DNA of 64,000 nucleotides. It comes from Planctomycetota bacterium (lineage in GTDB: Bacteria; Planctomycetota; UBA8108; UBA1146). A program made the translations under genes and the position numbers. Where the stretch lies: assembly GCA_016776905.1 (NCBI GenBank), contig JADHSM010000001.1:180455-244454 (forward strand). The letters run 5' to 3'. The notes beneath the pieces were generated by a model. It made no database searches. It saw only the letters and a program-made list of their open reading frames with translations, and was not told the origin of the DNA. Shown here in pieces: positions 20,577 through 56,572 of the stretch (position 1 is its first letter; each line of letters begins with the position of its first letter).

Positions 20577-21692
20577 ATGGCAGTTAGAGATTACTACGAG
20601 GTTCTCGGAGTCACTCGCGATGCGAGCGACTCCGAGATCAAGAAGGCCTATAGAAAAATGGCTCTCAAGTATCACCCGGACAAAAATCCGGGCGATGAAG
20701 CGGCTGAACGTCATTTCAAGGAAGCCGCCGAAGCCTTTGAAGTTCTCAGCGATGACGATAAGAGAAAAATCTACGACGCCCATGGGCACGAAGGCCTCAG
20801 TGGTATGGGCGGTGGTGGAGGATTCTCCAACATCGAAGATATCTTCAGGAACTTCGGTGACATCTTTGGTGGCGGTGGAGTTTTCGGAGACATCTTCGGA
20901 GGTGGGCAGGCACAGCAGCGCAGAGGTGAGAGCCTCAGGGCTCATGTCACGATCCCATTAGAAGATGCTGCAGCAGGAACTCGCCGAACGATCACTCTTC
21001 GTCGAAAAGTGCATTGCCAACCCTGTAGTGGTTCGGGGGCTGCGGCGGGAAGTCGCCCCACCTCCTGTGGAACCTGCTCGGGTACGGGGCAAGTCTTAAG
21101 AAGCCAAGGCTTCTTCAGTGTCCGTACTCACTGCCCGAACTGTCAAGGGCAAGGCGAAATCATCGAAAATCCTTGCGGCTCATGCCGAGGTGTTGGGCTG
21201 ACACAAAAAAATGAAGAGATCGAGATCGAGATTCCCGCAGGTATAGAAGAGGGCATGATTCTTCGTGTCAGTGGTCGGGGGAATGAGGGTGCTCGTGGAG
21301 TCGCTGCTGGAGATCTCCAGGTGGTGATTGGTTATGAGAGTCACGCCTTTTTTCAAAGACGCGATAATCACGTGGGGTTTGAACTTCCCGTGTCATATTC
21401 TCAAGCCGTTTTGGGATCAGAAGTGGAAGTACCCACTCTTGAAGGCAAGGCTCTCTTGACTGTTCCTGCTGGGACACAGAGTGGAGAAGTCTTAAGAATG
21501 AGGGGCATGGGTTTCCATTCAGTGCATTCTCGCCGTAAGGGAGATCAACTCGTCGAGGTGACCGTTGAAGTCCCCCAAAATATCAGTGAGGAGCAGGAAG
21601 AGCTTCTTCGCCAACTCGCTGAGATAGAGGAGACGGAAGTTGGATCACGAAGAAGGGGATTCCTTGACAGATTCAAGGAATACTTCGGGTAG
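20577..21692 (+). CDS. dnaJ: Chaperone DnaJ (type I Hsp40)
   Basis: J-domain with HPDKNP, a Gly/Phe-rich linker, and four CxxCxGxG zinc-finger repeats ([32 protein letters not shown]). Confidence 0.9.
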
Positions 21693-33220: not shown

Positions 33221-33808
33221 TTGGATATTCTTGATCCAAATGAACTAATCTCTCTCGTCAAGGAAGCCCGGCTGGGCAACCGAAATGCGTTCCACCGACT
33301 CGTGACATATCATCAGAGAGTCGCAGGGGGGGTGGCATACGGAATACTGGGCGACATACACCTTTCGGCAGATGCTGTTCAAGAAGCCTTCGTTAAAGCT
33401 TGGCAAAGTATAAGTATGCTGAAAGAAGACGAACGATTCAGTGCTTGGTTTCTCTCGATCGTTCGAAGCAAGGCTCTGGATCTGTTGCGTCAGAGGAAAA
33501 GAAAAGCTCCGGAATACGCCCAAGTCGACTCTGAAAGAGATGTCAGTCCCGATCTCGGTCCTCTTGAGAAATTGGAAAGTTCGGAAAAGGCCCAAAGGAT
33601 CAGGAAGTTGATCGAGGGTTTACCTCCTGAATATAGGGAGATTTTATTGCTCAAGCATCAACTGGATAAATCCTATCTCGAGATCGCTCGTATTCTTGGT
33701 TCGACCCCAAAAGCAGTGGAGTCAAAGTTAGCCAGAGCCAGGAAGTTGTTGGCAGAACGATGGAATCTTCAGGAAGATAATTCCAAGAGAGGTGGCGAAA
33801 ATGCATGA
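33221..33808 (+). CDS. ECF-family RNA polymerase sigma-70 factor
   Basis: Region 2 (LVKEARLGNRNAFHRLVTYHQ...AWF) and region 4 HTH (YREILLLKHQLDKSYLEIARILGSTPKAVESKLARARKLL). AGGAGG upstream. TTG start. Confidence 0.8.
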   Translation: MDILDPNELISLVKEARLGNRNAFHRLVTYHQRVAGGVAYGILGDIHLSADAVQEAFVKAWQSISMLKEDERFSAWFLSIVRSKALDLLRQRKRKAPEYAQVDSERDVSPDLGPLEKLESSEKAQRIRKLIEGLPPEYREILLLKHQLDKSYLEIARILGSTPKAVESKLARARKLLAERWNLQEDNSKRGGENA

Positions 33809-34841
33809 CCGGTCATGTGAAACAGTCAGGGATCTGATCTCCCTTGAAATGGATGGGGAGATTTCTGCTGATCAGCAGCAGTTTTTGGAGTCTCACCTCG
33901 ATACCTGTTCTGATTGTCGTCAATGGTCTGCGTCGCTTCACGATGGAGTTCACTCATTGAAATCCGATGTCGGTGAATTGAGTGGAGAACTCGATTCTCT
34001 GATTCGTGATTCACTCAATGCTGAAGATCTATTGGGGGCTGACTCTGATCTTCAAAGAAATCAGGCGTCAGAGAAGGCGGCTCCAGTATTAGCTCTCAGT
34101 GCATTTGCCATATTAGTATTGATCGCTGTGACTTCGACTCTGTTGTTTGATTTTGGTAGTCCCAACGGAACTCCTGTCGGAGTCGTCAGTGGATTTGGAG
34201 AAATCACGAGAGCGGATGGATTGCTGATCGAATCCAATGGTGTTGATTTCAACGGAACTATGAAGCTCATGCGTGGGGATACCATCGTTGCTACAGAAGG
34301 TGGTGTACGTGTTCGCGAGTTTTTGGGAGAGATCGTTGATTTAGATGAAGGAACCATTCTTCGGTATCAAAGCCCTCGATTTTTCGAGGTTGTGCAGGGT
34401 AAGGCCGAATTTTCTGTTCCTTCAGGAGGCTCTCGTTTTGTTGTGAAGACTCCGGAACTCTCAGTAGAAGTTGTAGGGACAAAATTCAGTGTGCAGCGTT
34501 GGAGTTCAAAGCAACAAAGTGAAGTGCGAGTTCAAGAGGGGCAAGTCATGATTCAGTGGGGGAAACGAATCCCGTTGCCCGTCGTCGATGGAGAATGGGT
34601 TGAGGTCAATTCCTCGGGCTTCATGTTTCATTCTGTCCCAAGATCTATTGAGCGCGATGACCAAGAGAATATTCAAAGGCCGGCCGCAAGAATCGGGAAA
34701 CCCATAAAGTTGTTTGATGAGGAATCTCAAAAGACTCCAAGGCAACTCAGACGTGAAAAAGGAAGAGCTCTAGATCTTCCTTCGGGAGCCTTTAAAGGTA
34801 GCTCTGAAGACGAAGAAGAGGACACCGACGAGAACGAATGA
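33801..34841 (+). CDS. Putative zinc-finger anti-sigma factor (bitopic, periplasmic FecR-like domain)
   Basis: N-terminal HxxxCxxC-type motif (LESHLDTCSDCRQW) and a central transmembrane helix (VLALSAFAILVLIAVTSTLLF). 8-nt overlap with the ECF sigma gene. Confidence 0.55.
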   Translation: MHDRSCETVRDLISLEMDGEISADQQQFLESHLDTCSDCRQWSASLHDGVHSLKSDVGELSGELDSLIRDSLNAEDLLGADSDLQRNQASEKAAPVLALSAFAILVLIAVTSTLLFDFGSPNGTPVGVVSGFGEITRADGLLIESNGVDFNGTMKLMRGDTIVATEGGVRVREFLGEIVDLDEGTILRYQSPRFFEVVQGKAEFSVPSGGSRFVVKTPELSVEVVGTKFSVQRWSSKQQSEVRVQEGQVMIQWGKRIPLPVVDGEWVEVNSSGFMFHSVPRSIERDDQENIQRPAARIGKPIKLFDEESQKTPRQLRREKGRALDLPSGAFKGSSEDEEEDTDENE

Positions 34842-34885: not shown

Positions 34886-35815
34886 TTATCGCTGGGTCTC
34901 GATGTGCAATCCGAAAACCCGACCATCGATCATTCGCACGGACTTGTCTTTGTAGGACCAATCTTCCAGTAAATGATTTTCAAAGCGAATCCATTCCACA
35001 TCTCTGGGATCTCCCCATGCAAGACGAACTTGCTTACGACGGGTTCCCTGCCTGATATCTGAACTATTAGGTTCTCGTCTCGATACATTGATCAACTGGG
35101 CAAGATCGGCATGAGCTAACTTTGACAGTTCTACTCGGGCGATGGGAAGAATATTGTCGCCGACTCTCATCAGCCCCGAAAATTCCAAGAAGTCTTGTTC
35201 AGATATCCATTGCTGGCCATAGGGGTAGAGATCTGATTTCAGAGCCATTTTCGCCAGTCCGAATTTATCAATAGTTTCTTTCAGGACTGTTTTTCCGGAA
35301 AAGAAATTTGATCCTAATTTGAGCCAAGCCAGCTTGGCGACATGATCTTCAGGCTGAAATGAAATCCATAGTTTTGGCTGGTCTTGAACCGGGCTTTCCC
35401 TGAGAAGGAATTTTTCGAGGAGATGTGTCAGTGAGGAATCGTCGCTCTTTAAAATCGAATTTCTGCGTTCTTGAACCGCTTCTAAGACAAGAGCGCTTTT
35501 CAGCAGGCCGTGGAAATGGAATATTGTCCAACCGCTCTCTGATTTTCTGAGATCGAGTTCTAAAAATGGAGAATCCAGATTTCTATCCAAAAGAGGCAAG
35601 GTCACTTGATCCAGGATTCCCAAAGATTCGGAATGCCCAGAGATCTCAATCTGTTGTCCGACTCTGTCTTGGAGACGGGCATGGATTTTGACAACGTTCG
35701 AGGTGGTCAAATGGAGCTCATCTGGAGTCAGTGTGGATTGTGGAGTTGCCGCAATGAGTGATCCCAAAATGAGAAAAATACTAGAAATCATTTTACTTGC
35801 TCCTCGATGTCGCAA
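34886..35815 (-). CDS. Hypothetical secreted protein
   Basis: Signal peptide MISSIFLILGSLIAA. Overlaps the 3' end of the upstream DUF4388 gene (operon on the minus strand). Confidence 0.35.
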   Translation of the reverse strand: MRHRGASKMISSIFLILGSLIAATPQSTLTPDELHLTTSNVVKIHARLQDRVGQQIEISGHSESLGILDQVTLPLLDRNLDSPFLELDLRKSESGWTIFHFHGLLKSALVLEAVQERRNSILKSDDSSLTHLLEKFLLRESPVQDQPKLWISFQPEDHVAKLAWLKLGSNFFSGKTVLKETIDKFGLAKMALKSDLYPYGQQWISEQDFLEFSGLMRVGDNILPIARVELSKLAHADLAQLINVSRREPNSSDIRQGTRRKQVRLAWGDPRDVEWIRFENHLLEDWSYKDKSVRMIDGRVFGLHIETQR

Positions 35816-38718
35816 AGAGTTCCGTCGCTGAGAGTCACCATGATATGACCCGATCCAGCATGAGAGAGATCCAGTGCTGCTGCTCCGAGGGACACTTCGC
35901 TATATACAGTTTCGCCGGGTCCCATCAATCTTAAGATTCCATCTCCACCAGCGAGCCAGGCTAATTCCTGGTTCGAAGAATGCCTCAATGGTGGGCATGT
36001 ACTCGGAATGGGGGATTTGTGTTCTTCAGCAACGCCATTCTGTAAACAAGCCCAGCCATTCTTTGTTGAGTAAAGCTGAGTATTTCCGAGAAGGCTAATC
36101 TCGGACAGGGGAGGAGGTGCAAAGCGGGTTTGATCACGACTCCAAATTTCTCCAGAAGTGAGGAGTAGAGTTCCATCTTCAAGAACTGAATGTGGTTCTC
36201 CTGGAATAGTCATCGCTTCCTGAACGATTTCTCCCGAAGAGTGAACAGTATGAAGGCGACGAATCGCATCGATGACGATGAGATTCCCTGAGGCATCGGT
36301 TCCAATGTGTTCAATAGGTGCACCCATATGGACAAACCAAGCCTTGTCGCCAGAGACATTCAGACTCGTTAATCCCCCTGCGCCATCCCCGAGTATCCAG
36401 TGCTCGCCAAATTGGATTCCACATTTCCAGGGTGTATGGGTGATCTGACCTAAGGTCTTGATCTCACCTTCTTTTGATATCGAAAGAGGACGCCCTTCTC
36501 TCGGTAGAGCCAGAATGGAGTTGCTTCCTTGAATGAGAATGGGTGCTGGGTGTCCGATGATCCCTACCGAATGTTCGGAGATGAGTCTGAGATCGCCCAA
36601 GTCCACAACTCGGATTTTTCCATCGCGTCCTGAGAGGACGACTCTTTCTCCTAAGCTCAAGGACTCCAAACAGGGTTCTGTCAGAATGCTGCTTCTGAGA
36701 GGACTCCTGACAAGAGAAATGAGCATTCTTGGGGGGGATTCCCCACTGAGGTTCAGGAATCTAGGGCGACAGCCCTTTTTCTCAAGGTAGATTTCTAGCT
36801 GTTCTTCTTTTTTCAATGACACAGTTAATGGGCTGACGCCGATCAGTGAACGGTCTCGTCCTAGAATCTTCGCTCCAGATGGAACACTATCTATCAGGAC
36901 GGGGTATCGAATCGAGGCACGCTCTCGCATAGGTAAGGTCTCGAGTGCAGAGGGCGTCAAAGTATCAAGTAAGACTCTCGCTTCATGGGCTGAGCCTTCT
37001 TCTATAAGTGCCTCGGCCCTGATCAATGCATCTTTGACATCTACCTTTTTTCGATTTCGTTCGGCACGTGCGTTATTTCGCGTCTGAGTGATGAGATCTT
37101 TCTCAGCTGCAACTTCAATTTGAATCAGTTTTCGAATCCTTGACCCTGCAGTATCGCTATTTCCTGCCGCAAAGGTCCATGGGTGAAGAAGACTCACTCT
37201 TTCGTAGGCTTCTGCAGCTGTGATTTTAGATGAGATTTGGTCTGAGTTTTTTTCAATTTCTTTTGCAGCGGATAACATTCCCTGAGCACGCCATTCAGTA
37301 GAGATCTGTATTATGGCGAACAAGAACAAAAGAAATACTGAACCGAATTTAATATATCTGGCTTGTAACTTTTTATTGTCAATTTCGATTTGTCGGGAGA
37401 GTAACTCTTCAAGAGACTTTTCATCCATGCCGTGATCTGGCGACATGGTGCGTAGACTTCTCTCTGCTCGGAGTGCAATCTCCGGAGATTTTTTTCCTGA
37501 GAGGGCTATCGCATTTTCAAGGCAGGATTTCGCTTCTGGATCTTTGAATCTCAGCAGGGTTTCTCCCAGCTGTAGCCAGTAAGATCCTTCTTCTCCTTTG
37601 AGATATTCAGCTTCACGAAGAATTGTGATCAGTTTTTTGTATTCACCCTGTCTGCGAAGTGCTTTGCAAAGGTCATCAAATATCTGAGCGTTTTTCCGGG
37701 AAGGAATGAAATCTCGCATTTCCCAGCAATCGAGCAAATCCTCTAGGTGACCCGATGAGAGTATCAGGAGGCGCTGTAGTCGTTTCCATGCGGCTTCCTG
37801 ATCACCGTGCTCTCTCAAGTGTCGAACGGACATACGTAGGAAAACCGCCTGAGTTTCGGTGTCTGCATGCCCTGCGCAGTCTGCTGCTTCATCTAGGAGT
37901 GCGATATGGTTTTCGACTTCTCCCGAGTCAATCAGAGCTTCATAGATAGCGAGAGCCTCCGCAGGTATTTCTGCAGAACGATCTCTTGCTCTCCTCAGCA
38001 TTTCGTCATGAGTGGCTTCTCTGATCCATCCTTCTTCAAGAAAACGATAGAGAACTGTGCATGCATCAAATCGCGTGAGAGTGGACTCAGATAAAACTTC
38101 TTCAATCGTGCGAGAACCATCGTTGAGTTTGAACAATGAATTGTTCTCAGCAGGTTCTTCTGAGTTTTTTACAGGAACCAGAATCCAACGCTGGTCTTGA
38201 ATCCTCTGTCGGATCACATTCCACTCATCTGCTTGGCGCAATCCTTCAAGGACGATGGTCATGGGATCTACTTGAATACGCGTAACATGATAGATGTCAT
38301 CTTCGTGAGTCGACTTCAGTTGCTCTGGGAAAAATTCGAATGAACCTCGAGTCCACAGAAAGAGATCAAAAAGTTCTTCTTCGATTTTTGTTCTTAGAGC
38401 TTTTTCAAGTTCGGTCTCGGCGATCGCTCCGCGTTCGATCAGAGCTCTCCCTAACAAGATTCCAGTATCTTCATGATCTTTACTGGCTTGTTCGAGATCT
38501 TCGTGAGAGACGACACCCTGTCGCAGCAGGATGCTGCGTAGGCGAAGTTGTTGGGTGGTGGACGAACGAACAAGGGTGATGCGACCTGTCTCGAACACGA
38601 TCGAGACTTTTTCCCCATCTCGATTGATTTCGAGAGTTCCTGACCGCGCCCCTTGCGAGAGGGTCTGCAGTAACTCCTGTAATCCAAAGTGTTCTAGGTG
38701 TCCTTTTAAGATACTCAT
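35788..38718 (-). CDS. Large DUF4388-domain membrane protein with MshEN-like motif, TPR-like helical region, transmembrane helix and C-terminal beta-propeller-like domain
   Basis: N-terminus GHLEHFGLQELLQTLSQGARSGTLEI...GRITLV is DUF4388-like. LLGRALIERGAIAETELEKALRTK is an MshEN-type motif. A transmembrane helix (FGSVFLLFLFAIIQI) lies near residue 470. The C-terminal half is beta-rich. Confidence 0.6.
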   Translation of the reverse strand: MSILKGHLEHFGLQELLQTLSQGARSGTLEINRDGEKVSIVFETGRITLVRSSTTQQLRLRSILLRQGVVSHEDLEQASKDHEDTGILLGRALIERGAIAETELEKALRTKIEEELFDLFLWTRGSFEFFPEQLKSTHEDDIYHVTRIQVDPMTIVLEGLRQADEWNVIRQRIQDQRWILVPVKNSEEPAENNSLFKLNDGSRTIEEVLSESTLTRFDACTVLYRFLEEGWIREATHDEMLRRARDRSAEIPAEALAIYEALIDSGEVENHIALLDEAADCAGHADTETQAVFLRMSVRHLREHGDQEAAWKRLQRLLILSSGHLEDLLDCWEMRDFIPSRKNAQIFDDLCKALRRQGEYKKLITILREAEYLKGEEGSYWLQLGETLLRFKDPEAKSCLENAIALSGKKSPEIALRAERSLRTMSPDHGMDEKSLEELLSRQIEIDNKKLQARYIKFGSVFLLFLFAIIQISTEWRAQGMLSAAKEIEKNSDQISSKITAAEAYERVSLLHPWTFAAGNSDTAGSRIRKLIQIEVAAEKDLITQTRNNARAERNRKKVDVKDALIRAEALIEEGSAHEARVLLDTLTPSALETLPMRERASIRYPVLIDSVPSGAKILGRDRSLIGVSPLTVSLKKEEQLEIYLEKKGCRPRFLNLSGESPPRMLISLVRSPLRSSILTEPCLESLSLGERVVLSGRDGKIRVVDLGDLRLISEHSVGIIGHPAPILIQGSNSILALPREGRPLSISKEGEIKTLGQITHTPWKCGIQFGEHWILGDGAGGLTSLNVSGDKAWFVHMGAPIEHIGTDASGNLIVIDAIRRLHTVHSSGEIVQEAMTIPGEPHSVLEDGTLLLTSGEIWSRDQTRFAPPPLSEISLLGNTQLYSTKNGWACLQNGVAEEHKSPIPSTCPPLRHSSNQELAWLAGGDGILRLMGPGETVYSEVSLGAAALDLSHAGSGHIMVTLSDGTLCDIEEQVK

Positions 38719-38879: not shown

Positions 38880-40046
38880 ATGAAAGTCAAACCTGAGGGC
38901 TCTCCGGGGCTATATGTTCACGTCCCGTTCTGTCGAAGCCGATGCACATATTGTGACTTCCATGTGGCAGCCCTTCGTCCGGGGGTCGTCACCGATTATG
39001 TTTCCGCCCTGATTTTGGAGATCCAGCACCATGCCGATGCCGGATTCTCTCCCGAAACTATTTTTATCGGCGGAGGGACTCCTAGCGCTCTTTCCGTGGA
39101 AGACTGGACTCGCCTTCTTAAATGTTTGTCCGAGTCTTTTCAGTCTGGTCTCAAAGAGTGGACGATCGAGGCGAATCCTGAATCCATCGATGAGCAAAAA
39201 ATAGAGATAGCGTTGTCATTAGGAGTTGATCGTTTGAGTACAGGAGCGCAAACGTTTGTAGAGACAGGGCTCGCTTTACTGGGCCGGAGGCACGACGCTC
39301 AAAGGGTGCACGAGGTTCATGATCTGTTTCAGAAGTTAGGTGTACCTCGAACAAGCTTAGATCTCATTGTGGGATGGCCTGGGCAAGCCATCGACTCCGT
39401 AAATACTGACCTTGCGGCGGTCAAAGAGATCGATCCTGATCATATCAGTCTCTATCACCTGAGTTATGAACAAGGAACTTGGCTTCATTCGATGCGTGAG
39501 CGTGGCGGACTCAAACCAATAATGGACGACACCTGTATCGAACTCTCAAGAGCATTTCTCCAAGGGCTTCAAGAGCAAGGTTTTGAGCGATATGAAGTTT
39601 CAAATTTGTATGCAAGAGGTGGAGCCTCTCTTCACAATCTCAACTATTGGGAGCGGGGTGAATACCTCGGAGTTGGCAGCGGTGCTGCTTCGTTTATGGA
39701 GGGGTTGAGATGGAAAAATAAGCCGGACGTTCAAAAATATATCTCGGCGGGTGGTTCTCCTGAAAAGGTCTCCATTGAAACTCCAGAACTCTTGGAAGTG
39801 GTCACTGAACTGATCATGCTCGAACTGAGATTGACTCGGGGTATGAATCTGAACCGGTTCAAAACCGAGACAGGGTTGGATTTTCATGAGATTTGTGGTG
39901 AGAGTTTGCACAGTTTTGAAAAACGGGGTTTGCTCATACAGGGGGAGAATGCCATTCGGGCTTCCTCCGAAGGATTCGAGGTCCTCGATTCCGTGATCGT
40001 CAAATTTGTAGAAGACGCTGAGGAGAGGCTCAATGAGGGAACGTGA
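38880..40046 (+). CDS. hemW: Radical SAM heme chaperone HemW (coproporphyrinogen-III-oxidase-like)
   Basis: CxxxCxxC motif (FCRSRCTYCDFH) at the N-terminus and HemN-like C-terminal domain. GGAG ribosome-binding site. Confidence 0.75.
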   Translation: MKVKPEGSPGLYVHVPFCRSRCTYCDFHVAALRPGVVTDYVSALILEIQHHADAGFSPETIFIGGGTPSALSVEDWTRLLKCLSESFQSGLKEWTIEANPESIDEQKIEIALSLGVDRLSTGAQTFVETGLALLGRRHDAQRVHEVHDLFQKLGVPRTSLDLIVGWPGQAIDSVNTDLAAVKEIDPDHISLYHLSYEQGTWLHSMRERGGLKPIMDDTCIELSRAFLQGLQEQGFERYEVSNLYARGGASLHNLNYWERGEYLGVGSGAASFMEGLRWKNKPDVQKYISAGGSPEKVSIETPELLEVVTELIMLELRLTRGMNLNRFKTETGLDFHEICGESLHSFEKRGLLIQGENAIRASSEGFEVLDSVIVKFVEDAEERLNEGT

Positions 40047-40617
40047 CATTCCACAGTTGGAAGTGAGCTTGGCAATTCGGCTCCTCAGGCATCGGGGCTG
40101 GGTCTCCATTGAGATTCTTGCAGACGTCCTCAAAGAAATGGGCCCTCAAGCCGGTTTGGGCGGATTTCTAGATCTACTTCAGGTGGGATCGCCATTGCCC
40201 TTAAGTGCTGAGAGAAGCGCTCTTTTGGTGGATAGAGTTCGAAACCAAATGAGAAGTTTACTTTCTCATGGCCCGGATTCCAGAATCGACGACGGTAGAC
40301 TCGGACGGCTCGCTCTCGGTAAGGGCTGGATATCCTCTCCAATGCTGGAGTCTGCGCTTTTAGAACAAGCAAGACTTCGTCGTATGGGTTTGAGGTTTCG
40401 TTTGGGAGAAGTTTTTGTTCGCCTTGATCATTTGACGAAACGACAGGTTGAGACACTCCTGGAAGAGCAGGGGGCTTTGATCAAAACCTGTAAGAGTTGC
40501 CGAAGAGTGGAGAAATTCTCGGCCCAAACCTGTGAATGCGGAAAACCTCTATTTCCGGGTCCTACCCTAGGACCGGTCGTTACAGACCGTTATCTGATCG
40601 CTCAGACTTATTCCTGA
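40033..40617 (+). CDS. Protein with tandem MshEN-like motifs and a C-terminal zinc ribbon
   Basis: RLGRLALGKGWISSPMLESALLEQ and RLGEVFVRLDHLTKRQVETLLEEQ are two consecutive 24-aa motifs of the MshEN type (tandem RLGxxLLxxGLIxxxxLxxxLxxQ). C-terminus CKSCRRV...CECGKPL. Overlaps the hemW 3' end. Confidence 0.4.
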   Translation: MRERDIPQLEVSLAIRLLRHRGWVSIEILADVLKEMGPQAGLGGFLDLLQVGSPLPLSAERSALLVDRVRNQMRSLLSHGPDSRIDDGRLGRLALGKGWISSPMLESALLEQARLRRMGLRFRLGEVFVRLDHLTKRQVETLLEEQGALIKTCKSCRRVEKFSAQTCECGKPLFPGPTLGPVVTDRYLIAQTYS

Positions 40618-40717: not shown

Positions 40718-41332
40718 ATGAAGGACGACGATTTGCAGTCCAATCAAAATGAATCCTCTGGGGATACTGGAGCCAAGAGCTCTACCCCAGAGAGAGATTT
40801 GCCAGAAGTTGAAGCATTGCCCATAGACGACGCGGCAGCAGTGTCCGGTCTAGGCGAGGAGTTCAATGATGACGATGTCATTGTTTATCTCGATGACGTC
40901 GCTGAGATTTCTTCTGATGTGAGTGATTCCGATCTACTTTCTCACCGACCCGGTGAAGAAGACGTTCTCACTGAGTTCGAAAGATTGCCTGAAGTTCAAG
41001 TTCAATTGGTGGAGGGTCTTCCTGAAGTCTTCGATGTCGAAGAGATCACAGATCTGGTGACCGAAGAGGTTGAAGGAAACTGGACAGACATATTCTCTGA
41101 CAGAGAAGCATTGTTTGACCGGTGCAAGACGGTGGTCCTTGAAAACCAGAAAATCTTCGCAAGTGTTGCCGCGGTGTTTGTTATTGCAGCCGTAGCGCTT
41201 TGGATGCCAGGTGAGGCTTCTTCAGAGTCGGCATTGGTGAATCCTAATAGTGTCGTGTCTTCGGCTGAATCATTTGACCATTGGGTAGGTGGGGTGATTT
41301 CCGATCATCTCACTGAGATCGGAGGGGAATGA
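40718..41332 (+). CDS. Acidic hypothetical protein with a C-terminal transmembrane segment
   Basis: Asp/Glu-rich, with a transmembrane helix (IFASVAAVFVIAAVALWM). ATGA overlap with the next gene. Confidence 0.35.
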   Translation: MKDDDLQSNQNESSGDTGAKSSTPERDLPEVEALPIDDAAAVSGLGEEFNDDDVIVYLDDVAEISSDVSDSDLLSHRPGEEDVLTEFERLPEVQVQLVEGLPEVFDVEEITDLVTEEVEGNWTDIFSDREALFDRCKTVVLENQKIFASVAAVFVIAAVALWMPGEASSESALVNPNSVVSSAESFDHWVGGVISDHLTEIGGE

Positions 41333-42204
41333 TGAATAAGTTATTTCTTTGCCTACTAGCGTTCCTGTTTTTATTGACCCCTAGATTCCTATTCGCAGGA
41401 ACCATCGTTCTTAAGAACGGGCACGTTATCAATGGCAAGATCATTGCCAGTGACGAAGAGAAAGTCATCATGACTTGGGGTAATGGGCGGACGACGATCT
41501 ACCATCGTTTTATTGAGTCTGTCGTACTCAGCAAAGATGAAGAGCAGTACATTCTTCAGTACAGAAGTCCTAAAAACATTCAGGCTTCAAATGCACTGAC
41601 TGAAGAAATACAACTTCCGGATTTCGAAGAATTGCATGGAGAACCCGTTACCGATTTAGTTGAGGTTGATCAGGAACCCAGCGATTTAGTTCCAACGGAA
41701 CTCGCAGTCGATCCCGTATTGGACGACTCGAGTATTGTTTCGTCCGTGAAAAAGTTCCCAAATTTTGAACAACGAGTTTTTGCGCACCTCAGTTTTTCCA
41801 TGGAAGTTCCAGAGAATTGGTCAGTCAGCGATTCCGAGAACTCCATAAAAGTTCAATCTCCCAATGGGGGAGTGTTGATTTCTCTCGATCGATATTCTGG
41901 AGGAGAGCTCGCGGTTGATCGGGCTGCTGCGGGTTTATTGGGGAAGCTTGAGGAACATGGTTTTAAGGAAAAGCGAAATGGTTTTATTTCGCTCGTCGAT
42001 CATTTGGGCAGTGTGTGGTCGAGAGAGACTACAACGCTAAATGGTTCGCATGACTGTGTTCATGCCCTGATTCTGCCCGATTCCGATAATTCCCAAATGC
42101 TCATTTCTGTCTACAGAGACAATGGATCTGAAGAAATCAGCGAGGGATTGTTGACGACTGTGTTGTCGTCGTTGGTTCCGATTCAGGTCTCCGCGCAGAG
42201 ATAA
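41329..42204 (+). CDS. Hypothetical secreted protein with an N-terminal 'LKNGH' module
   Basis: Signal peptide, then GTIVLKNGHVINGKIIASDEEKVIMTW. This is a paralog of the N-terminal module of the 28990-30675 protein. Confidence 0.4.
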   Translation: MMNKLFLCLLAFLFLLTPRFLFAGTIVLKNGHVINGKIIASDEEKVIMTWGNGRTTIYHRFIESVVLSKDEEQYILQYRSPKNIQASNALTEEIQLPDFEELHGEPVTDLVEVDQEPSDLVPTELAVDPVLDDSSIVSSVKKFPNFEQRVFAHLSFSMEVPENWSVSDSENSIKVQSPNGGVLISLDRYSGGELAVDRAAAGLLGKLEEHGFKEKRNGFISLVDHLGSVWSRETTTLNGSHDCVHALILPDSDNSQMLISVYRDNGSEEISEGLLTTVLSSLVPIQVSAQR

Positions 42205-42229
42205 TTGAGACAAAAAAATGTAGTTTTCG

Positions 42230-42265
42230 TCGCAGGTGGCCTTTGCCGCCTGCGATTTTTTTTTG
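42230..42265 (+). terminator. Rho-independent terminator (stem tcgcaggtggc/gccgcctgcga followed by T9)
   Basis: Seen directly, 26 bp after the stop at 42204. Confidence 0.8.
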
Positions 42266-42887
42266 TCTGGAGAGAAAAAAAATGTTGAACTTCATTAAAT
42301 TTTCTCGTTAACATACTTACAGAACGAGAGAGGAACCATTTCGGAAGGGGAAATCCGGAGGTGCCTTGAACACAGAAATGAAGTCGTGGGGGAAATCTTT
42401 AGCTCACCTTTTCTTTGGGTGAGACTGTGAGTGCCCTCCGATTTTATTTTGCGAGATCTCTTTTGGTCATTTCTTCATCGACCAGCCCAGGGGAAGGGTT
42501 GTCTCGACTCCCTCATTTATTGCCCTCATCCTTTCGGCTATTCCAATTCTGGAATGGTAAGAGGAAACTTTCACCTTACCGGGCCGTGAATCGTGATCAT
42601 CCACTCTGGAAATTGAGTGCCACCCAGGTGGCGGGCAGATGATTTCATAAAATTCCATTCCAGTTTTCGAGGTAACAGTTTTCCATCCGTACACCGCGGA
42701 TGATCTAACTGCCATGGAACTTTCAAGTTGTGTCTTGCATCTATAGTCTTTTTTCACGCATACTCTTGGAGATTTCTATCGGCGAGCGGCAGGGCAGTGG
42801 TTGCCCCACTCCGTTCACCGGGCGTCCCCTCGGAGGGGGGCGGGAGCATCAGGATTGAGGGGCATGTCCCCCGATAGGAGTTGGCTC

Positions 42888-43250
42888 ATGGCCAAGAAAA
42901 AGGTAGCGCGTAAGAAAGCAGCCAAGAAAAAGGTTGCTAAGAAAAAGGTAGCTAAGAAAAAGACTGCCAAGAAGAAGGTAGCCAAGAAGAAAGTTGCCAA
43001 GAAGAAGGTAGCTAAGAAGAAGGTTGCCAAGAAGAAGGTAGCTAAGAAGAAAGTTGCCAAGAAGAAGACTGCCAAGAAGAAGGTAGCCAAGAAGAAGGTC
43101 GCCAAGAAGAAGACTGCCAAGAAGAAGGTAGCCAAGAAGAAGGTCGCCAAGAAGAAGGTCGCCAAGAAGAAGGTCGCCAAGAAGAAGACCGCCAAGAAGA
43201 AGGTCGCTAAGAAGGCAGCCAAGAGAAAGACCACGCTTAGAAAAAAGTAA
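42888..43250 (+). CDS. Histone H1-like lysine/alanine-rich basic protein (Hc1/AlgP-type repeat protein)
   Basis: [30 protein letters not shown]..., built almost entirely of (KKVAK)n and encoded by 15-bp tandem repeats. ATG 42888 with AGGAG 8 nt upstream. The track ORF is extended upstream. Confidence 0.6.
42895..43215 (+). repeat. 15-bp tandem repeat array (gccaagaagaaggta and variants, about 21 units) encoding ([10 protein letters not shown])n
   Basis: Directly visible; it creates the antisense artefact ORF 42815-43234. Confidence 0.9.
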
Positions 43251-44815: not shown

Positions 44816-44826
44816 GAGTTAAAGAG

Positions 44827-44910
44827 TGCCGAGGGGGGGACTCGAACCCCCATGAGCCTAAGCTCATCAGATCCTTAGTCTGACGCGTCTGCCAGTTCCG
44901 CCACCTCGGC
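44827..44910 (-). tRNA. tRNA-Leu (type II, long variable arm); anticodon read by hand as AAG
   Basis: The reverse complement GCCGAGGTGGCGGAACTGGCAGACGCGTCAGACTAAGGATCTGATGAGCTTAGGCTCATGGGGGTTCGAGTCCCCCCCTCGGCA folds as a 7-bp acceptor stem, a D-arm resembling E. coli tRNA-Leu (GCGGAAtTGGtAGACGCG), an anticodon stem TCAGA/TCTGA with loop CTAAGGA, a 15-nt variable arm, and a T-arm GGGGG-TTCGAGT-CCCCC. No encoded CCA. Confidence 0.75.
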
Positions 44911-50088: not shown

Positions 50089-51165
50089 ATGACAGAATTT
50101 TTCCTGGCGGGTGTGGACCCCGAACCGCTAGCTTTGATTTTGCAAATCTTTGCGGTTCTCGTCGGAGCGTCTGTGGGTTCGTTTTTGAATGTCTGTATCT
50201 ATCGAATTCCTATCGAGGGACTTGGAGTCAGTTCTCCGAGTGGTTCTTTTTGTCCCGGTTGCAAAAAACCTCTGCGCTGGTTTGAAAATATTCCAATCTT
50301 GGCGTGGCTGGGGCTCAAAGGGCGTTGCAGCGGTTGCAAGATGAGGATTTCATTCCGATATCCCTTTGTGGAGGGTCTGACGGCCCTGTTTTTCTTATGG
50401 GCGATGCTGAGAATAGGTGGAGAGCCGTTTTTTGTTGATCCACTGGGGGAGAGTGGAGCCCTGTTATTGGGCTCCTGGATATGGATTTCTCTGGTCATCG
50501 TTGTCAGTGGCATCGATTTTGATCATCGCATCATTCCAGACGGACTCTCTGTATCTGCGACCGCTTTGATGCTTTTGCTGGCACCTTGGAATTCTCTCTT
50601 ACCTGGAACTGCGACTATCGATACTTCTCAAGGTCTTTTCTGGGGAGCGGCTTTGATCGGTGGCGCACTCTTTGGAATCGTATTTCAGCGTTTCGTACCG
50701 AGTTGGTCAGGTCAGCGGCGGACTTTGGCAGAAAGCTATCTGGCCTATGTTGTGGGTGCTCTTTCCGGTTATTTTGCCGCAGGGTTTATTTTCGGGAGTT
50801 TGGATCTGAACGAACTTCTGGCGTATCGATCCGTGGAGTCACTGCTCGGAGCAGCCGCAGGGGCGGGGCTGATTTGGGGGATTGGTCTCATCGGGAGTTG
50901 GGTTTTCCGAAAGCCGGCGATGGGCTTTGGTGACGTCAAATGGATGGGAATGCTGGGAGCAACTATAGGAGTTTTTCCAGTGGTGATATCTTTCTTTCTT
51001 GCCTGCATTCTGGGATCCATGATCGGGGTATACCTGAGAATCAAGAAGGGTCAGGCTTATATTCCGTTTGGGCCCTTTCTGTCCGGCGGGGCTCTTTTGT
51101 GGATATTGGCTCGTCCCGAACTGACAGATCTCTGGCACTGGTACATTGGGCTTCTAAGCCGTTGA
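50089..51165 (+). CDS. pilD: Type IV prepilin peptidase PilD (A24A family)
   Basis: N-terminal tetracysteine (CPGCKK...CSGCK) and the catalytic-Asp region GFGDVKWMGMLGA. About 8 transmembrane helices. Confidence 0.85.
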   Translation: MTEFFLAGVDPEPLALILQIFAVLVGASVGSFLNVCIYRIPIEGLGVSSPSGSFCPGCKKPLRWFENIPILAWLGLKGRCSGCKMRISFRYPFVEGLTALFFLWAMLRIGGEPFFVDPLGESGALLLGSWIWISLVIVVSGIDFDHRIIPDGLSVSATALMLLLAPWNSLLPGTATIDTSQGLFWGAALIGGALFGIVFQRFVPSWSGQRRTLAESYLAYVVGALSGYFAAGFIFGSLDLNELLAYRSVESLLGAAAGAGLIWGIGLIGSWVFRKPAMGFGDVKWMGMLGATIGVFPVVISFFLACILGSMIGVYLRIKKGQAYIPFGPFLSGGALLWILARPELTDLWHWYIGLLSR

Positions 51166-51417
51166 CAGGAGCGGATCCTCGGTGGGAGTCGCAGGCGGGG
51201 GAACTTAGGAAGAGACCGTTCCTCCGCTCTCCAAGGCAGGGTATCCTTTGGATTGAATAAAGCGGGGGGAAAGAGACAGAGGAGCCTTTCTGGTGAACTT
51301 CTGTCGATGCAAGGGCCGATATTTCGACCTTGACCATCAGTTTCCTCTTTGGCATGAGTGAAGTGAAATTAGCCGGTGCTCTGGATCACCATGAACACTT
51401 GAAAGGGGATCGCTGAA

Positions 51418-52155
51418 ATGAATGTCGTTACCAAGGTGTCCTTGATTCTTGGATTGCTCGTACTTGTTTCCGGTTGTCAATCGACCAGCTTCGAGAGGCA
51501 ACTGAGTTATAACAAAAGTAAAATGGTCGAATTGGAGCAAGAGCGTGACCGACTTGAATTCCAGTTGGCCACCTGTGAAGGAGCGCAGAGTGCTGCAACA
51601 AAAGAGCTCGTGTCATTGCAGGGACGATTCGCAAATGTGAGTGCCAAAAATGCTTCACTTGAATCCGAAATCAGTGCACTCATGTCTCGACCCGAACCGG
51701 CCTCAGCCATCATTGAAGAATTGCAGATCCCTGATCTCGAATCCTTCGAAGGCATCGAAGGATTGACAGCGACCTCTGACGAATCCGGAATCCGTTTAAC
51801 GATTGATCAGTCAGTTCTCTTTAGTTCCGGAAGCGCAGATGTAACCCGTAAAGGACAAGAGACTCTCAAGAAAATGGCCGGCATTTTAAAGAGAGAATAC
51901 TCCGGAAGAAATGTTCGAGTGGAAGGACATACAGACTCCACTCCCATCGTGAAAACAAAAAGTCGCTGGGGTAGTAACTGGGAACTGAGTTCCTTCAGAG
52001 CTTGTGCGGTTCTTCGAAAACTTCTTTCTGAAGGAGCGATGAAGCCGACGAAAGTCTCTGCCGTTGGATTTGGCGAGCAGCGTCCTGTTGCGGACAATAA
52101 AACTAAAGCAGGTCGTCGACTCAATCGTAGAGTTGAAGTGATCGTCGAAAACTGA
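51418..52155 (+). CDS. OmpA/MotB-domain lipoprotein with coiled-coil linker
   Basis: Lipobox LLVLVSGCQS. C-terminal OmpA-like peptidoglycan-binding domain (VEGHTDSTP...NWELSSFRACAV...NRRVEV). Confidence 0.75.
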   Translation: MNVVTKVSLILGLLVLVSGCQSTSFERQLSYNKSKMVELEQERDRLEFQLATCEGAQSAATKELVSLQGRFANVSAKNASLESEISALMSRPEPASAIIEELQIPDLESFEGIEGLTATSDESGIRLTIDQSVLFSSGSADVTRKGQETLKKMAGILKREYSGRNVRVEGHTDSTPIVKTKSRWGSNWELSSFRACAVLRKLLSEGAMKPTKVSAVGFGEQRPVADNKTKAGRRLNRRVEVIVEN

Positions 52156-52179
52156 TCGCCTCGATCGTATCTGAGTTTA

Positions 52180-52220
52180 AAACTGGCGTGACAACGATCG
52201 TTGTCACGCCAGTTTTTTTA
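52180..52220 (+). terminator. Rho-independent terminator (palindrome ctggcgtgacaacg-at-cgttgtcacgccag followed by T7)
   Basis: Seen directly, 25 bp after the stop of the OmpA-like gene. Confidence 0.85.
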
Positions 52221-52504
52221 TGTTGACCCCGTCCCTCGCCGTCCACGATGTGTGCATTATTTCTCAATGAGATCTCTCTCCGCCCTATTTCGTCTCCTTT
52301 GTCCCTAGAAGGCACGCAACAAGGCAGCAGCGACTACCGAGAAGAATCGTATGAAGTTCTGAAGTATTGCCAAACTGCCGCTCTTGGCCCGATTGCACCT
52401 ATCGATGCTACTCTTCCACGTGGAGAAATTTCTTCAATTCGAGGCTCATGGAGTCTCGTGAATTAAGAGGGACGATCAGCGTTCCATTGATAAGGAGTCG
52501 GGGC

Positions 52505-53569
52505 ATGACCATAGAAGACCTCGTTCAACAACTCGTTGAGAGAGAAGGTTCGGACCTCCATTTGGGGGCGGGTACATCGCCGATGATTCGTATCCACGGA
52601 AGACTGGTCGCTGTTGGCGACTCAGCCATGGATGCAGAGGACGTTAGAAAGATCGTTTATTCCATTCTTGATAACGAGCAGATTCGGAACTTTGAAAAAG
52701 ATCAAGAATTGGATATGGCCTTCGGCATCTCAGGACTTGGGCGATTCAGAACCAATGTGTTCTATCAACGAGGATCTATTGGAGCCATTCTCAGGGTGAT
52801 TCCAACTCAGGTTCCAGAACTGAGTACGCTTGGCCTTCCCGAGGATGTCTGTGAAGGCTTGGCGATGAAGAAGAAGGGACTCGTTCTGGTAACGGGTGCA
52901 ACAGGGAGCGGTAAATCCACTTCCTTGGCTTCGATGGTGGACTTTATCAATAAAGGTCGTAACGACCACATCGTGACCATCGAAGATCCCATTGAATTTG
53001 TGCATCGTAATCAGAATTGCAGAGTGACTCAGCGTGAAGTGGGAACAGATACTCCTTCTTTTGCGAGTGCACTCAGGAGAGTACTTCGCCAGGATCCTGA
53101 CGTGATCATGGTGGGGGAACTCAGAGATTTGGAAAGCATTGGCTCTGCATTGACCTGTGCAGAGACAGGACACCTCACTTTTGGAACGCTTCATACGAAT
53201 GATGCGGTGCAAACACTCAACAGATTGATTGATGTTTTCCCTGCCCACCAGCAACAGCAGGTCAGAACTCAGCTCTCCTTTGTCCTTGAGGGGATTGTAT
53301 GCCAACAATTGGTCACCCGATCCGATGGACGCGGAAGAGTTCTCGCCAGTGAGGTTCTTTTGGCGACTCCAGCTGTTCGCGCTCTGATTAGGGATGACAA
53401 AGCCCATCAAATTCCTTCGGCGATTCAAACGGGAGGAAAATTGGGAATGAGAACGATGAACCAGTCTCTCTACGAGTTGTACAGGACTCGTCAGATTACC
53501 TATGAAGAGGCTCTTTCTAGGTCCACAGACGTCGAAGAACTCAAAAGAATCTTCCAGAGGCAGAGTTAA
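52505..53569 (+). CDS. pilT: Twitching motility ATPase PilT
   Basis: Walker A GATGSGKSTSLASM, Asp box, and the His box TLHTNDA. About 354 aa. ATG 52505 with an AGGAG ribosome-binding site; the track ORF is extended upstream. Confidence 0.9.
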   Translation: MTIEDLVQQLVEREGSDLHLGAGTSPMIRIHGRLVAVGDSAMDAEDVRKIVYSILDNEQIRNFEKDQELDMAFGISGLGRFRTNVFYQRGSIGAILRVIPTQVPELSTLGLPEDVCEGLAMKKKGLVLVTGATGSGKSTSLASMVDFINKGRNDHIVTIEDPIEFVHRNQNCRVTQREVGTDTPSFASALRRVLRQDPDVIMVGELRDLESIGSALTCAETGHLTFGTLHTNDAVQTLNRLIDVFPAHQQQQVRTQLSFVLEGIVCQQLVTRSDGRGRVLASEVLLATPAVRALIRDDKAHQIPSAIQTGGKLGMRTMNQSLYELYRTRQITYEEALSRSTDVEELKRIFQRQS

Positions 53570-53571
53570 AT

Positions 53572-55290
53572 ATGTCACAGGCCATCGCACGCTTTAATCG
53601 AAGACTTGGGAAAATCCTTGCTCGCCACAGGTTGGTCGAGGATCAAGCAATCGATGAAGCGATTCAACGTTCAGGAGAAGGGGGATCTGTCATGCGGATC
53701 CTCATCGAAGAGGGACAGGTTGCCGAGGACGAGTTTCTTGGAATCCTAGCGATGGAAACCGGAGTCGCTCCTATTGATCTGGGACGACTGTCGATGGATG
53801 AGAATCCTTATGAAGAATTGAAAGAAAAGATCGCCCGTTCTTGCAAAGTCTTACCCGTTGCGCATGCCGCGGGTGTCTTGACAGTCGCGATTGCTGATCC
53901 TCACGACATTCTTCTGCTCGACGAAATCAGAAATATGACACGGTGCCAAGTTCAGCCTGTCCTTGCTTGTGATTTTCGGATCGAAGAAGCGATTGATCGA
54001 CTCTATGGAGACGGTCGTAAAGAAATTGAAGAAGTCCTCGAGGATTATGGCCACTTAGACCTAGAACTCCGCGAAGGACACGATGAAGTAGACGAGGCGA
54101 TACAGGAGCTCTCTTTCGAAGGAGATGAGTCTCCAGTCGTCAAAATCGTCAATCATATTATCTACCAGGCACTGAGAGAGCGTGCTTCGGATATCCACGT
54201 CGAACCTCAAGAGAGGTCGATTCGAGTACGTTACAGATCTGATGGAGTATTGAGCGAAGCTCAACAACCTCCTGCACAGCTTCGTGCATCCATTGTTAGT
54301 CGTCTAAAGATCATGGCCGGACTGGATATCGCGGAGAGACGTATTCCACAAGATGGAAAGTTTCAACTTCGAATAGAAGGCCGCCAAGTTGATTTCAGAG
54401 TCTCTACTTTACCGACAGTGCACGGTGAAAAAGTGGTACTGAGGATTCTTGATTCCTCAAACCTGGCATTAAATCTGGAAAGTTTGGGTTTTGAAGAGAA
54501 GGCATTAAGAGATATCCGAAGTGCCATTTCTAGCTCATACGGAATGCTTTTGGTCACTGGGCCAACAGGCTCTGGTAAATCAACGACTCTTTACTCATGT
54601 GTGAATGAGGTTCTGTCTCCGACAGAAAATATCACAACAGTGGAAGACCCTGTTGAGTATCAGATTGAGGGAGTCGTTCAGGTTCCCGTCAACGCGAAGA
54701 GAGGCCTGACCTTTTCTAGGGCACTTCGTTCTATTCTTCGCCAGGACCCTGACACCGTCATGATCGGTGAGATCAGAGATCTTGAAACTGCGGAAATCGC
54801 CGTCAAGGCTGCCCTCACAGGGCATCGTGTTTTCTCAACCTTGCATACAAATGATGCACCTTCGACAGTGACGCGAATGGTCGATATGGGTATCGATCCT
54901 TTCCTTGTTGCTTCTTCGACCCAATGCATTGCTGCTCAAAGGCTTTGCAGGCGTCTCTGTGAAGACTGCAAGCAAGACGCAGGAGAATTGCCTTCAGAGA
55001 GACTTGTCGCGCTGGGATTCACGCCTGAAGAAGCGGAAGGGGCTCAGCTGTTTGAACCCCATGGGTGCGCCCGTTGTCAGGGTGGATACAGGGGAAGGTT
55101 TGCGTTGTTAGAAACGATGCCCCTCGACGAAGCTGTTCGACGAGTCGTTGTCGCTGGTGGTTCAGCGCTCGAAATCCGTGACGTAGCCATGGCCAATGGA
55201 ATGCAAACCCTCAGGAGGGTTGGAATCCTTAATTCGCTTAGAGGGAAAACTTCACTTGAGGAAGTACTCCGAGTGACACAGGGCGATTAG
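53572..55290 (+). CDS. pilB: Type IV pilus assembly ATPase PilB (GspE family) with N-terminal MshEN/T2SE_Nter-like motif
   Basis: Walker A GPTGSGKSTTLYS. Tetracysteine (CEDCKQ...CARCQGGYRGR). N-terminal RLGKILARHRLVEDQAIDEAIQ. Confidence 0.9.
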   Translation: MSQAIARFNRRLGKILARHRLVEDQAIDEAIQRSGEGGSVMRILIEEGQVAEDEFLGILAMETGVAPIDLGRLSMDENPYEELKEKIARSCKVLPVAHAAGVLTVAIADPHDILLLDEIRNMTRCQVQPVLACDFRIEEAIDRLYGDGRKEIEEVLEDYGHLDLELREGHDEVDEAIQELSFEGDESPVVKIVNHIIYQALRERASDIHVEPQERSIRVRYRSDGVLSEAQQPPAQLRASIVSRLKIMAGLDIAERRIPQDGKFQLRIEGRQVDFRVSTLPTVHGEKVVLRILDSSNLALNLESLGFEEKALRDIRSAISSSYGMLLVTGPTGSGKSTTLYSCVNEVLSPTENITTVEDPVEYQIEGVVQVPVNAKRGLTFSRALRSILRQDPDTVMIGEIRDLETAEIAVKAALTGHRVFSTLHTNDAPSTVTRMVDMGIDPFLVASSTQCIAAQRLCRRLCEDCKQDAGELPSERLVALGFTPEEAEGAQLFEPHGCARCQGGYRGRFALLETMPLDEAVRRVVVAGGSALEIRDVAMANGMQTLRRVGILNSLRGKTSLEEVLRVTQGD

Positions 55291-55308
55291 AAAAACAGGA
55301 GACATGGA

Positions 55309-56550: not shown

Positions 56551-56572
56551 TCAGACTGGGGGCTGTTTCGAA

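Follow-up and report, generated by a model that had tools for sequence, protein, structure and literature searches.

A small conserved gene next to hemW

The 64,000-nucleotide stretch analyzed here (the window) spans positions 180,455 to 244,454 of the forward strand of contig JADHSM010000001.1, in the GenBank assembly GCA_016776905.1 of a Planctomycetota bacterium from a marine lineage related to UBA1146. On its plus strand, an open reading frame (ORF) at 40033..40617 with an ATG start encodes a 194-aa protein, here named T194, which consists of a degenerate MshEN_N unit, a second MshEN_N unit, a predicted zinc ribbon and a tail. An earlier sequence-only reading of the window gave exactly the same coordinates, strand and length. 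The start of T194 overlaps by 14 nt the stop of hemW (38880..40046, plus strand), which encodes a radical-SAM heme chaperone scoring 249.6 bits against the TIGR00539 cutoff of 205.4.

T194 is a real, conserved gene, as judged by its codon differences from the 97%-identical ortholog at locus L002 (20 synonymous versus 6 non-synonymous) and by the existence of orthologs at 36 to 53% identity. Near-identical copies are found on a Logan contig (99%) and in a metagenome-assembled genome (MAG; 97%), and the gene order is preserved in both. The N-terminal MRERDIP is common to T194 and a 53%-identical homolog and therefore supports the annotated start. Since a transmembrane (TM) scan found no TM-like or signal segment in T194, the protein is considered cytoplasmic. 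A Pfam scan of T194 returned no family at E ≤ 10; the T2SSE ATPase domain PF00437 was not matched, and the protein is merely 194 aa long. The earlier statement that the tandem motif is joined here to a ribbon instead of a GspE ATPase is thus borne out.

An uncharacterized protein family in Planctomycetota

A word-index homolog search with the single T194 sequence found only the 99%-identical copy. Relatives were reached by exhaustive phmmer, which identified 285 proteins at E ≤ 1e-3, and a profile search added 62 clusters with E-values of 1e-41 to 1e-61. The counts, the profile and the alignment used for structure prediction are all based on a family sample of 73 members. Among the homologs is a coherent group of proteins some 180 to 240 aa long, which are unnamed, annotated as hypothetical, or automatically named from generic zinc-ribbon similarity; their named sources are Planctomycetes/Planctomycetota MAGs. 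The shared architecture comprises an MshEN_N unit, a second MshEN_N unit with a 10-aa spacer, a CxxC...CxxC zinc ribbon and an acidic tail of the form P-x-FLDxVxxD. In most members the N-terminal unit is canonical (LFGRIAVxNGYLxxxQLxECLxxQ ... xIGEILLExGYLTxEQL), and the spacer of the second unit has the consensus Q-x-R-L-R-R-h-N-L-x-F. The NCBIfam model NF053729 (cyclic di-GMP-binding domain-containing protein, MshE-related; 53 positions, curated cutoff 38 bits) matches 73/73 members, with a best E-value of 2.5e-23. Cross-matches to the NfrB model were found for 21 members, and to the related PRK15489 glycosyltransferase model for 43.

The C-terminal MshEN_N unit retains key ligand-binding positions

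All 53 positions of NF053729 align to residues 89 to 146 of T194 (E 4.8e-8, 32.7 bits). The alignment defines a first cyclic di-GMP (c-di-GMP) half-motif, RLGRLALGKGWISSPMLESALLEQ, at residues 89 to 112 (40297..40368, plus strand), and a second, RLGEVFVRLDHLTKRQVETLLEEQ, at residues 123 to 146 (40399..40470, plus strand), where Arg1, the Leu next to it, Gly3, Leu21 and Gln24 are retained. Over the whole of residues 89 to 146, the hydrophobic positions of the motif are for the most part preserved as well. Both 24-residue motifs had been recognized in the sequence-only reading. The spacer between them, put there at about 8 residues, measures 10 (ARLRRMGLRF, residues 113 to 122; 40369..40398, plus strand) and follows a family-conserved x-R-L-R-R-h-N/G-L-x-F pattern. 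In a six-frame translation of the whole window, motif 1 alone fits the relaxed motif that Wang et al. published in 2016, and T194 is likewise the only match in the window to a hidden Markov model (HMM) of the family C-domain.

Among PDB sequences, the top phmmer matches are to GSPII-B, a c-di-GMP-binding domain of Thermus PilF, whose segment LRLGELLLQKGWISREALEEALVEQ aligns strikingly with motif 1. Compared with the PDB, the 73-member profile matches PilF (E 6.8e-10), PilB (5zfr; 2.5e-5) and residues 8 to 61 of MshE 5HTL (2.4e-3), and the two halves of the profile match different PilF GSPII domains. Residues 8 to 61 are the crystallographically defined c-di-GMP domain of MshE (PMC5013675). From these full-length and profile matches we conclude that the tandem motif of T194 and the MshEN_N c-di-GMP module are homologous, in line with the resemblance proposed earlier.

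Residues whose replacement severely impairs binding in MshE are intact in the T194 C-domain, namely Gly-3 (G91 and G125) and Gln-24 (Q112 and Q146). Across the family, Gly-3 is kept in 61/73 members in motif 1 and 59/73 in motif 2, and Gln-24 in 72/73 and 65/73, respectively; the Leu-17 and Leu-21 positions are also retained across family C-domains; in T194 itself, position 17 of motif 2 is a Val. In MshE, binding suffers most from replacing the Gly-3 of either half-motif: the G11L substitution abolishes detectable c-di-GMP binding and G40I causes a 72-fold loss, whereas Q32A and Q61A weaken binding about 10-fold (PMC5013675). The T194 C-domain is free of the XpsE-type disabling substitutions that this study lists. 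An ortholog comparison of the key positions, whose lack of conservation the sequence-only reading had named as grounds for refutation, upheld the conservation of Gly, Leu and Gln, and not that of the first Arg.

The same reading had regarded the lack of a PF05157 match as counting against its MshEN assignment, and T194 indeed gives none at E ≤ 10. In the PilB protein of the window, PF05157 covers residues 64 to 149, past the motif region at residues 11 to 60. Because the PilB match starts only after the motif region, the PF05157 search is uninformative for proteins that possess only MshEN_N. For the same reason, the lack of a match indicates that T194 is without the MshEN_C subdomain.

A degenerate N-terminal bundle and the predicted fold

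Residues 8 to 80 (40054..40272, plus strand) make up a predicted N-terminal four-helix bundle which, as judged from column profiles and hhalign, is a second, degenerate MshEN_N bundle, so that T194 is more than the single tandem motif first described. In this unit both Gly-3 positions are replaced (Ile15 and Leu46), Met36 replaces Gln-24, and there is a 2-aa insertion. An hhalign comparison of N-domains from the degenerate clade with those of the canonical clade gave a probability of 93.7% (E 1.9e-7, 70 columns), and profile searches showed that the canonical family N-domains match PilF 302-360 and PilB 20-69. T194 is therefore a degenerate and intact MshEN_N pair, whose N-unit has lost its Gly and Gln residues yet stays homologous to the N-domains of its sister clades.

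An AlphaFold2 (AF2) model of T194 built with the 73-sequence alignment has a mean predicted local distance difference test score (pLDDT) of 89.6 and a predicted TM-score (pTM) of 0.76; with the T194 sequence alone the pLDDT was 39.7. The model consists of two four-helix units, with helices at residues 9-21, 26-35, 42-52 and 59-78 in the N-unit and 81-96, 102-117, 124-130 and 136-145 in the C-unit, followed by a three-stranded ribbon (strands 150-153, 159-161 and 172-175) and a terminal helix (185-193) predicted at lower confidence. A Foldseek search of the PDB with the full model found nothing at E ≤ 0.001; relevant matches were limited to weak ones, with a PilB N-terminus (7lkm_B) and generic zinc ribbons.

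A predicted zinc ribbon and an acidic tail

The predicted zinc ribbon occupies residues 150 to 175 (40480..40557, plus strand), with C153-x2-C156, a 10-aa loop and C167-x-C169. The C-terminal CxxC...CxC ribbon of the sequence-only reading is present as described, and its Cys columns are conserved in the family: those of C153, C156 and C169 are invariant, and the fourth is kept in 71/73 members. The family pattern is CxxC-(13 to about 40)-CxxC. In most members the second knuckle is a CxxC; in T194 and the homolog P0002 the fourth Cys is shifted, giving CxC. The alignment and the AF2 model together show four conserved Cys, two knuckles and predicted β-strands in T194, features from which we infer zinc binding. 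None of the curated Pfam or NCBIfam zinc-ribbon models matches T194, and the family profile matches generic ribbons (YebS, Trx2, LysW, RpoM) weakly, with E-values of 0.015 to 0.03. We also considered an origin of the ribbon in the tetracysteine region at the C-terminus of PilB; this was rejected, the alignment to PilB 458-481 scoring 0.2 bits.

The ribbon is followed by the C-terminal tail, PGPTLGPVVTDRYLI (40558..40614, plus strand), in which L179 and D185 are family-conserved within the acidic consensus P-x-FLDxVxxD. The tail is a candidate docking peptide.

A divergently transcribed PATAN gene is the conserved neighbor

Synteny was assessed in 20 loci, comprising 13 that are close or moderately related (L001-L013) and seven distant ones (L016-L022, in which one and the same protein is found on two contigs, L017 and L018); L015 was also inspected. 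In L001-L013 the gene order is rsgA, an extracytoplasmic function (ECF) sigma factor gene, a FecR anti-sigma factor gene, orf309 and a 976-aa PATAN protein gene on the opposite strand, hemW, the T194 ortholog, orf204 and orf291. One of these contigs (L008, QNYK01000080.1) is labeled 'Bacillota bacterium MAG 7', although it has the Planctomycetota gene order and its proteins are 33 to 65% identical to those of the window; it is probably mislabeled or mis-binned. The divergent arrangement persists in L016-L022, where the gene opposite the family gene encodes a PATAN protein of 994 to 1003 aa. These larger proteins contain PatA_N and a β-propeller, with PEGA in all except that of L021, and usually TPR-like repeats (faint matches in four of the seven). 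The PATAN gene of the distant loci adjoins a sigma/anti-sigma pair, the upstream genes of L022 being without a recorded family match.

The conserved neighbor of T194 is thus the gene for a PATAN/DUF4388 membrane protein. Of the distant loci, only L017/L018 and L019 have hemW in the interval that separates the two genes; L016, L020, L021 and L022 are without it there, and so is L015. The position of T194 downstream of hemW, as originally described, is correct for the window but incidental across related loci, because the PATAN neighbor stays where hemW is missing.

In the window, the 976-aa PATAN/DUF4388 protein is encoded on the minus strand at 35788..38718 and is our partner candidate, identified by its PF14332 match (97.2 bits), its NF053729 match (35.9 bits) and synteny. 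A TM scan predicts one TM segment at about 454-476, which separates a cytoplasmic half with PATAN and a TPR region from a periplasmic half; in relatives the latter contains PEGA and the β-propeller. An MshEN_N copy is nested in the PATAN domain at residues 62 to 110 (nt 38389-38535), which corresponds to the α-clip insert known from PATAN domains, and the PF14332 match covers 163 residues compared with the 122 positions of the model. Motif 1 of this copy has Arg instead of Gly-3, so it is probably degenerate. The adjacent orf309 (34886..35815, minus strand) is conserved in synteny and encodes 309 aa with a hydrophobic segment near the N-terminus and no family match. Since orf309 runs into the end of the gene for the 976-aa protein, the two are probably co-transcribed. 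On the far side of this gene pair, the ECF sigma gene (33221-33808, plus strand) and the FecR/zf-HC2 anti-sigma gene (33792-34841, plus strand) are conserved.

In distant relatives the gene immediately 3′ of the family gene encodes a third MshEN_N protein. Five of the six such proteins scanned (L016, L017 and L019-L022) score above the NF053729 cutoff, the L013 and L015 assignments were made by eye from translations, and some of the downstream proteins of distant loci also bear a T2SSE_N1-like part. The genes are located at L013 6015-6686, L015 8258-9013, L016 7653-8423, L017 7628-8335, L019 7570-8277, L020 7660-8172, L021 7681-8193 and L022 6686-7360. The window lineage is without this downstream MshEN_N gene and an adjacent sigma/anti-sigma pair, and orf204 and orf291 therefore adjoin T194. 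Orf204 (40718..41332, plus strand) encodes a 204-aa protein with a very acidic N-terminus and one TM segment at about 143-168, and is conserved only in the close lineage. Orf291 (41329..42204, plus strand) encodes an exported protein of 291 aa with a signal-like N-terminus and a match to Lepto_7_Nterm (NF047433, 43.4 bits); its homologs are found further downstream in distant loci. A strong terminator-like hairpin of 12 pairs (8 GC) with a T-run lies directly after orf291 (42229..42256, plus strand) and likely closes a hemW-T194-orf204-orf291 transcription unit. An RNA scan near T194 that included the c-di-GMP riboswitch found only a tRNA-Leu (44826-44910). Beyond the hairpin, a 149-aa lysine-rich repeat ORF at 42801-43250 (plus strand) looks histone-H1-like, and the N-terminus of its product is partly matched at the same position in L001, L002, L006, L008, L010 and L011.

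Other MshEN_N-motif proteins in the window

The window is rich in the MshEN_N module. The sequence-only reading had counted four proteins with the motif, and all four match NF053729: T194 (32.7 bits), the product of an ORF starting at 14366 (26.9 bits), the DUF4388 protein (35.9 bits) and PilB (17.2 bits, E 0.0033). None of them reaches 38 bits, and the PilB copy is degenerate. Multiple MshEN copies in one organism are already known, as in Myxococcus xanthus with 22 (PMC5013675).

The ORF at 14366-14704 (plus strand) encodes 112 aa and is an MshEN_N-only protein, which is found by the HMM of the canonical family N-domain with an E-value of 3.8e-7. It is located directly after a dcw cluster comprising a penicillin-binding protein gene, two Mur ligase genes, ftsW, murG, a third Mur ligase gene and a 285-aa ORF, a position occupied in many bacteria by ftsA and ftsZ. 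Its stop overlaps the ATG of the next gene (14704-16791, plus strand), which encodes a 695-aa AAKQ-repeat protein with a single TM segment; the overlap suggests translational coupling. We also considered whether the MshEN-like gene that lies downstream in the distant loci has a displaced ortholog here in the 14366 ORF or orf204, and rejected this for lack of significant BLAST similarity. The weak N-terminal motif of PilB means that PilB may not be c-di-GMP-responsive here. PilB belongs to a block of type IV pilus and regulatory genes (50089-59517, plus strand) with a prepilin peptidase, a PAS histidine kinase and a sigma-54 response regulator, in which a PilT-like ATPase and a PilC-like protein were assigned by sequence inspection alone. 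Elsewhere in the window, tandem Cpn60/GroEL paralogs (17309-18943 and 18964-20568, plus strand) are followed by dnaJ (20577-21692, plus strand).

A putative c-di-GMP receptor or adaptor

We propose, at about even confidence and on the basis of homology, architecture, residue conservation and synteny, that T194 may act in the cytoplasm as a soluble c-di-GMP receptor or adaptor with a protein-interaction output, belonging to a Planctomycetota-wide family. The second bundle (residues 89-146) would bind one c-di-GMP across both half-motifs in the manner of MshE and PilF: each guanine would stack on a Leu triangle and be hydrogen-bonded by the Gly-3 backbone, and Gln-24 would hold the phosphate and ribose. 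The first bundle, whose Gly and Gln ligand contacts are lost in this lineage, would serve as a structural or interaction module. Ligand occupancy would alter the presentation of the zinc ribbon and the C-terminal tail to a partner, the most likely candidate being the cytoplasmic PATAN/TPR part of the divergent 976-aa membrane protein, which itself bears an MshEN_N copy. By pure inference, the acidic tail could dock on the TPR region. In Synechocystis, PATAN domains bind the N-terminal, α-clip-bearing part of PilB1, and the same paper notes α-clip repeats in two settings, inserted into PATAN domains and opening the N1 domains of secretion ATPases (bioRxiv 10.1101/2021.06.11.447907); by analogy, a free-standing α-clip protein encoded beside a PATAN gene is a plausible ligand-gated partner.

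Several observations weigh against this proposal. The NF053729 score of T194 is under the curated 38 bits. Motif 2 deviates from the relaxed pattern of Wang et al. at positions 10 (Asp132) and 11 (His133), where the canonical residues are Gly and a hydrophobic residue, respectively; position 10 is Glu in the L002 ortholog and Gly in most relatives, and variants that change this Gly were not found in the supplement of PMC5013675. The spacer, at 10 residues, is twice the canonical five (PMC5013675), and Arg occupies position 1 of motif 1 in only 7/73 members, and that of motif 2 in 37/73. The second zinc knuckle is an unusual CxC, and the partner assignment draws on gene neighborhood and analogy only. 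A GGDEF motif search of the 64-kb window, a span that is uninformative on this point, gave no match and thus no sign of a diguanylate cyclase; short E[AV]LxR strings turned up several times.

Part of this evidence would also fit a ligand-independent α-clip adaptor in which both bundles are degenerate, as in XpsE or GspE, and which acts as a scaffold, for example by mimicking the PilB N-terminus in binding PATAN. The subthreshold NF053729 score, the doubled spacer, the motif 2 Asp/His and the unconserved Arg-1 are all in keeping with such a protein, as is the clearly degenerate N-domain. Loss of binding is noted for many MshEN domains by Wang et al. (PMC5013675), and the PATAN interaction with the N-terminal region of PilB1 offers a precedent for the mode of binding. 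We nevertheless regard this explanation as somewhat unlikely, since Gly-3, Leu-17/21 and Gln-24 of the C-domain are under strong purifying conservation whereas the same N-domain positions have decayed in the T194 clade, and the XpsE-type disabling changes are absent.

It is quite unlikely that T194 is a c-di-GMP-responsive nucleic-acid-binding regulator that acts through its zinc ribbon to control the PATAN gene or the adjacent ECF sigma regulon. NrdR, a zinc ribbon joined to a nucleotide-sensing ATP cone, would be the analogy. Every locus examined keeps the divergent layout with a short intergenic region, and the T194 ribbon region has a net charge of +4; family ribbons, however, are not consistently basic, with a median of +1 (range −9 to +4), and they are followed by an acidic tail. 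Weak profile matches to TFE/RpoM-type ribbons and JGI automatic names for relatives, such as 'predicted Zn-ribbon and HTH transcriptional regulator', could also point to such a role, but the names stem from generic ribbon similarity alone, and no helix-turn-helix (HTH) or other DNA-binding domain was detected in T194 by Pfam and NCBIfam scans. A role as a HemW accessory factor translationally coupled to hemW is very improbable: the 14-nt overlap and the presence of hemW directly upstream in the window lineage and several other loci would be consistent with it, but the synteny of loci that keep the PATAN neighbor and are without hemW (L015, L016 and L020-L022) largely refutes a functional link, and the T194 sequence has no hints of heme or radical-SAM chemistry.

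Returning to the proposed c-di-GMP receptor, a wider extension, which we consider unlikely, is that the locus represents a conserved Planctomycetota-specific c-di-GMP hub, with up to three MshEN_N proteins forming an undescribed trans-envelope signaling device. The hub would consist of the PATAN-TPR-TM-PEGA-β-propeller protein, the (MshEN_N)2-zinc-ribbon protein and, in most lineages, the downstream MshEN-like protein, flanked by ECF sigma/anti-sigma pairs. The c-di-GMP occupancy of several α-clips would govern what assembles at the membrane and, by way of that assembly, envelope or surface-structure functions.

Relationship to known MshEN proteins

Like the MshEN_N domain of Vibrio cholerae MshE (5HTL, PMC5013675), T194 has two 24-residue half-motifs of the RLGxxhhxxGhhxxxxLxxxLxxQ type in a predicted four-helix unit, with Gly-3, the Leu positions and Gln-24 conserved and the family profile aligning to MshE 8-61. 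Unlike MshE, T194 has no MshEN_C (T2SSE_N1) and no ATPase, and it possesses the 10-residue spacer, the motif 2 Asp/His and the zinc ribbon. The isolated MshEN_N of MshE binds c-di-GMP alone, with a dissociation constant of 0.35 μM (PMC5013675). The best match of solved structure is GSPII-B of Thermus thermophilus PilF (8PFA, 8PDK, 6F8L; PMC11731258; DLRLGELLLQKGWISREALEEALVEQ vs DGRLGRLALGKGWISSPMLESALLEQ). PilF also possesses tandem MshEN-type domains, some binding and some not, which parallels the intact and degenerate pair of T194; a further study likewise indicates that not every Thermus PilF GSPII domain binds c-di-GMP (PMC12002112). Helix α2 of PilF is, like that of T194, C-terminally extended. 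The PilF domains, however, are full GSPII domains with N and C subdomains on a traffic ATPase, whereas T194 consists of N-type bundles and a zinc ribbon.

Several smaller or non-ATPase proteins are also comparable. Cyanothece cce_1044 (Supplementary Table 4 of PMC5013675) is, like T194, a small protein with two MshEN_N and no enzymatic domain, but it is cyanobacterial and without the zinc ribbon or the FLDxV tail. The α-clip insert of PATAN/DUF4388 proteins (Makarova et al. 2006, as cited in bioRxiv 10.1101/2021.06.11.447907) shares a two-hairpin helical repeat with T194; in PATAN proteins it is an insert within another domain, whereas in T194 it is the core of the protein. The Escherichia coli NfrB-type glycosyltransferases, with a C-terminal MshEN (PMC8669469), resemble T194 in being non-ATPase proteins, and NfrB is MshEN-regulated; the likeness is limited to the MshEN part, since T194 has no glycosyltransferase domain. 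Described MshEN_N-only architectures include (MshEN_N)2, REC-MshEN_N, (MshEN_N)2-CheX and MshEN_N-AAA_31, and none of those listed has a zinc ribbon (PMC5013675). Literature searches pairing MshEN with a zinc ribbon found no paper, and a search on DUF4388 found nothing on the T194 family.

Significance of the family

Among c-di-GMP receptor modules, only PilZ, MshEN and now also ComFB are widespread (PMC12448109). The MshEN_N module is itself established and occurs fused to many other domains, and what is new here is the domain architecture and an uncharacterized family, not a new principle. Another MshEN_N fusion would alone be unsurprising to specialists; a phylum-wide family, a distinctive spacer and a locus with multiple MshEN_N proteins add weight, in a phylum for which a literature search on c-di-GMP signaling found no paper and where the field appears little explored. 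The family-specific 10-residue spacer probes the tolerance of the 53-residue motif, and the family offers a natural pair of intact and degenerate MshEN_N units. If c-di-GMP binding fails, the family would be a useful negative control for motif-based receptor censuses. The invariant linkage to the PATAN-β-propeller protein provides a concrete partner candidate, and may indicate a role for α-clip inserts outside the cyanobacteria.

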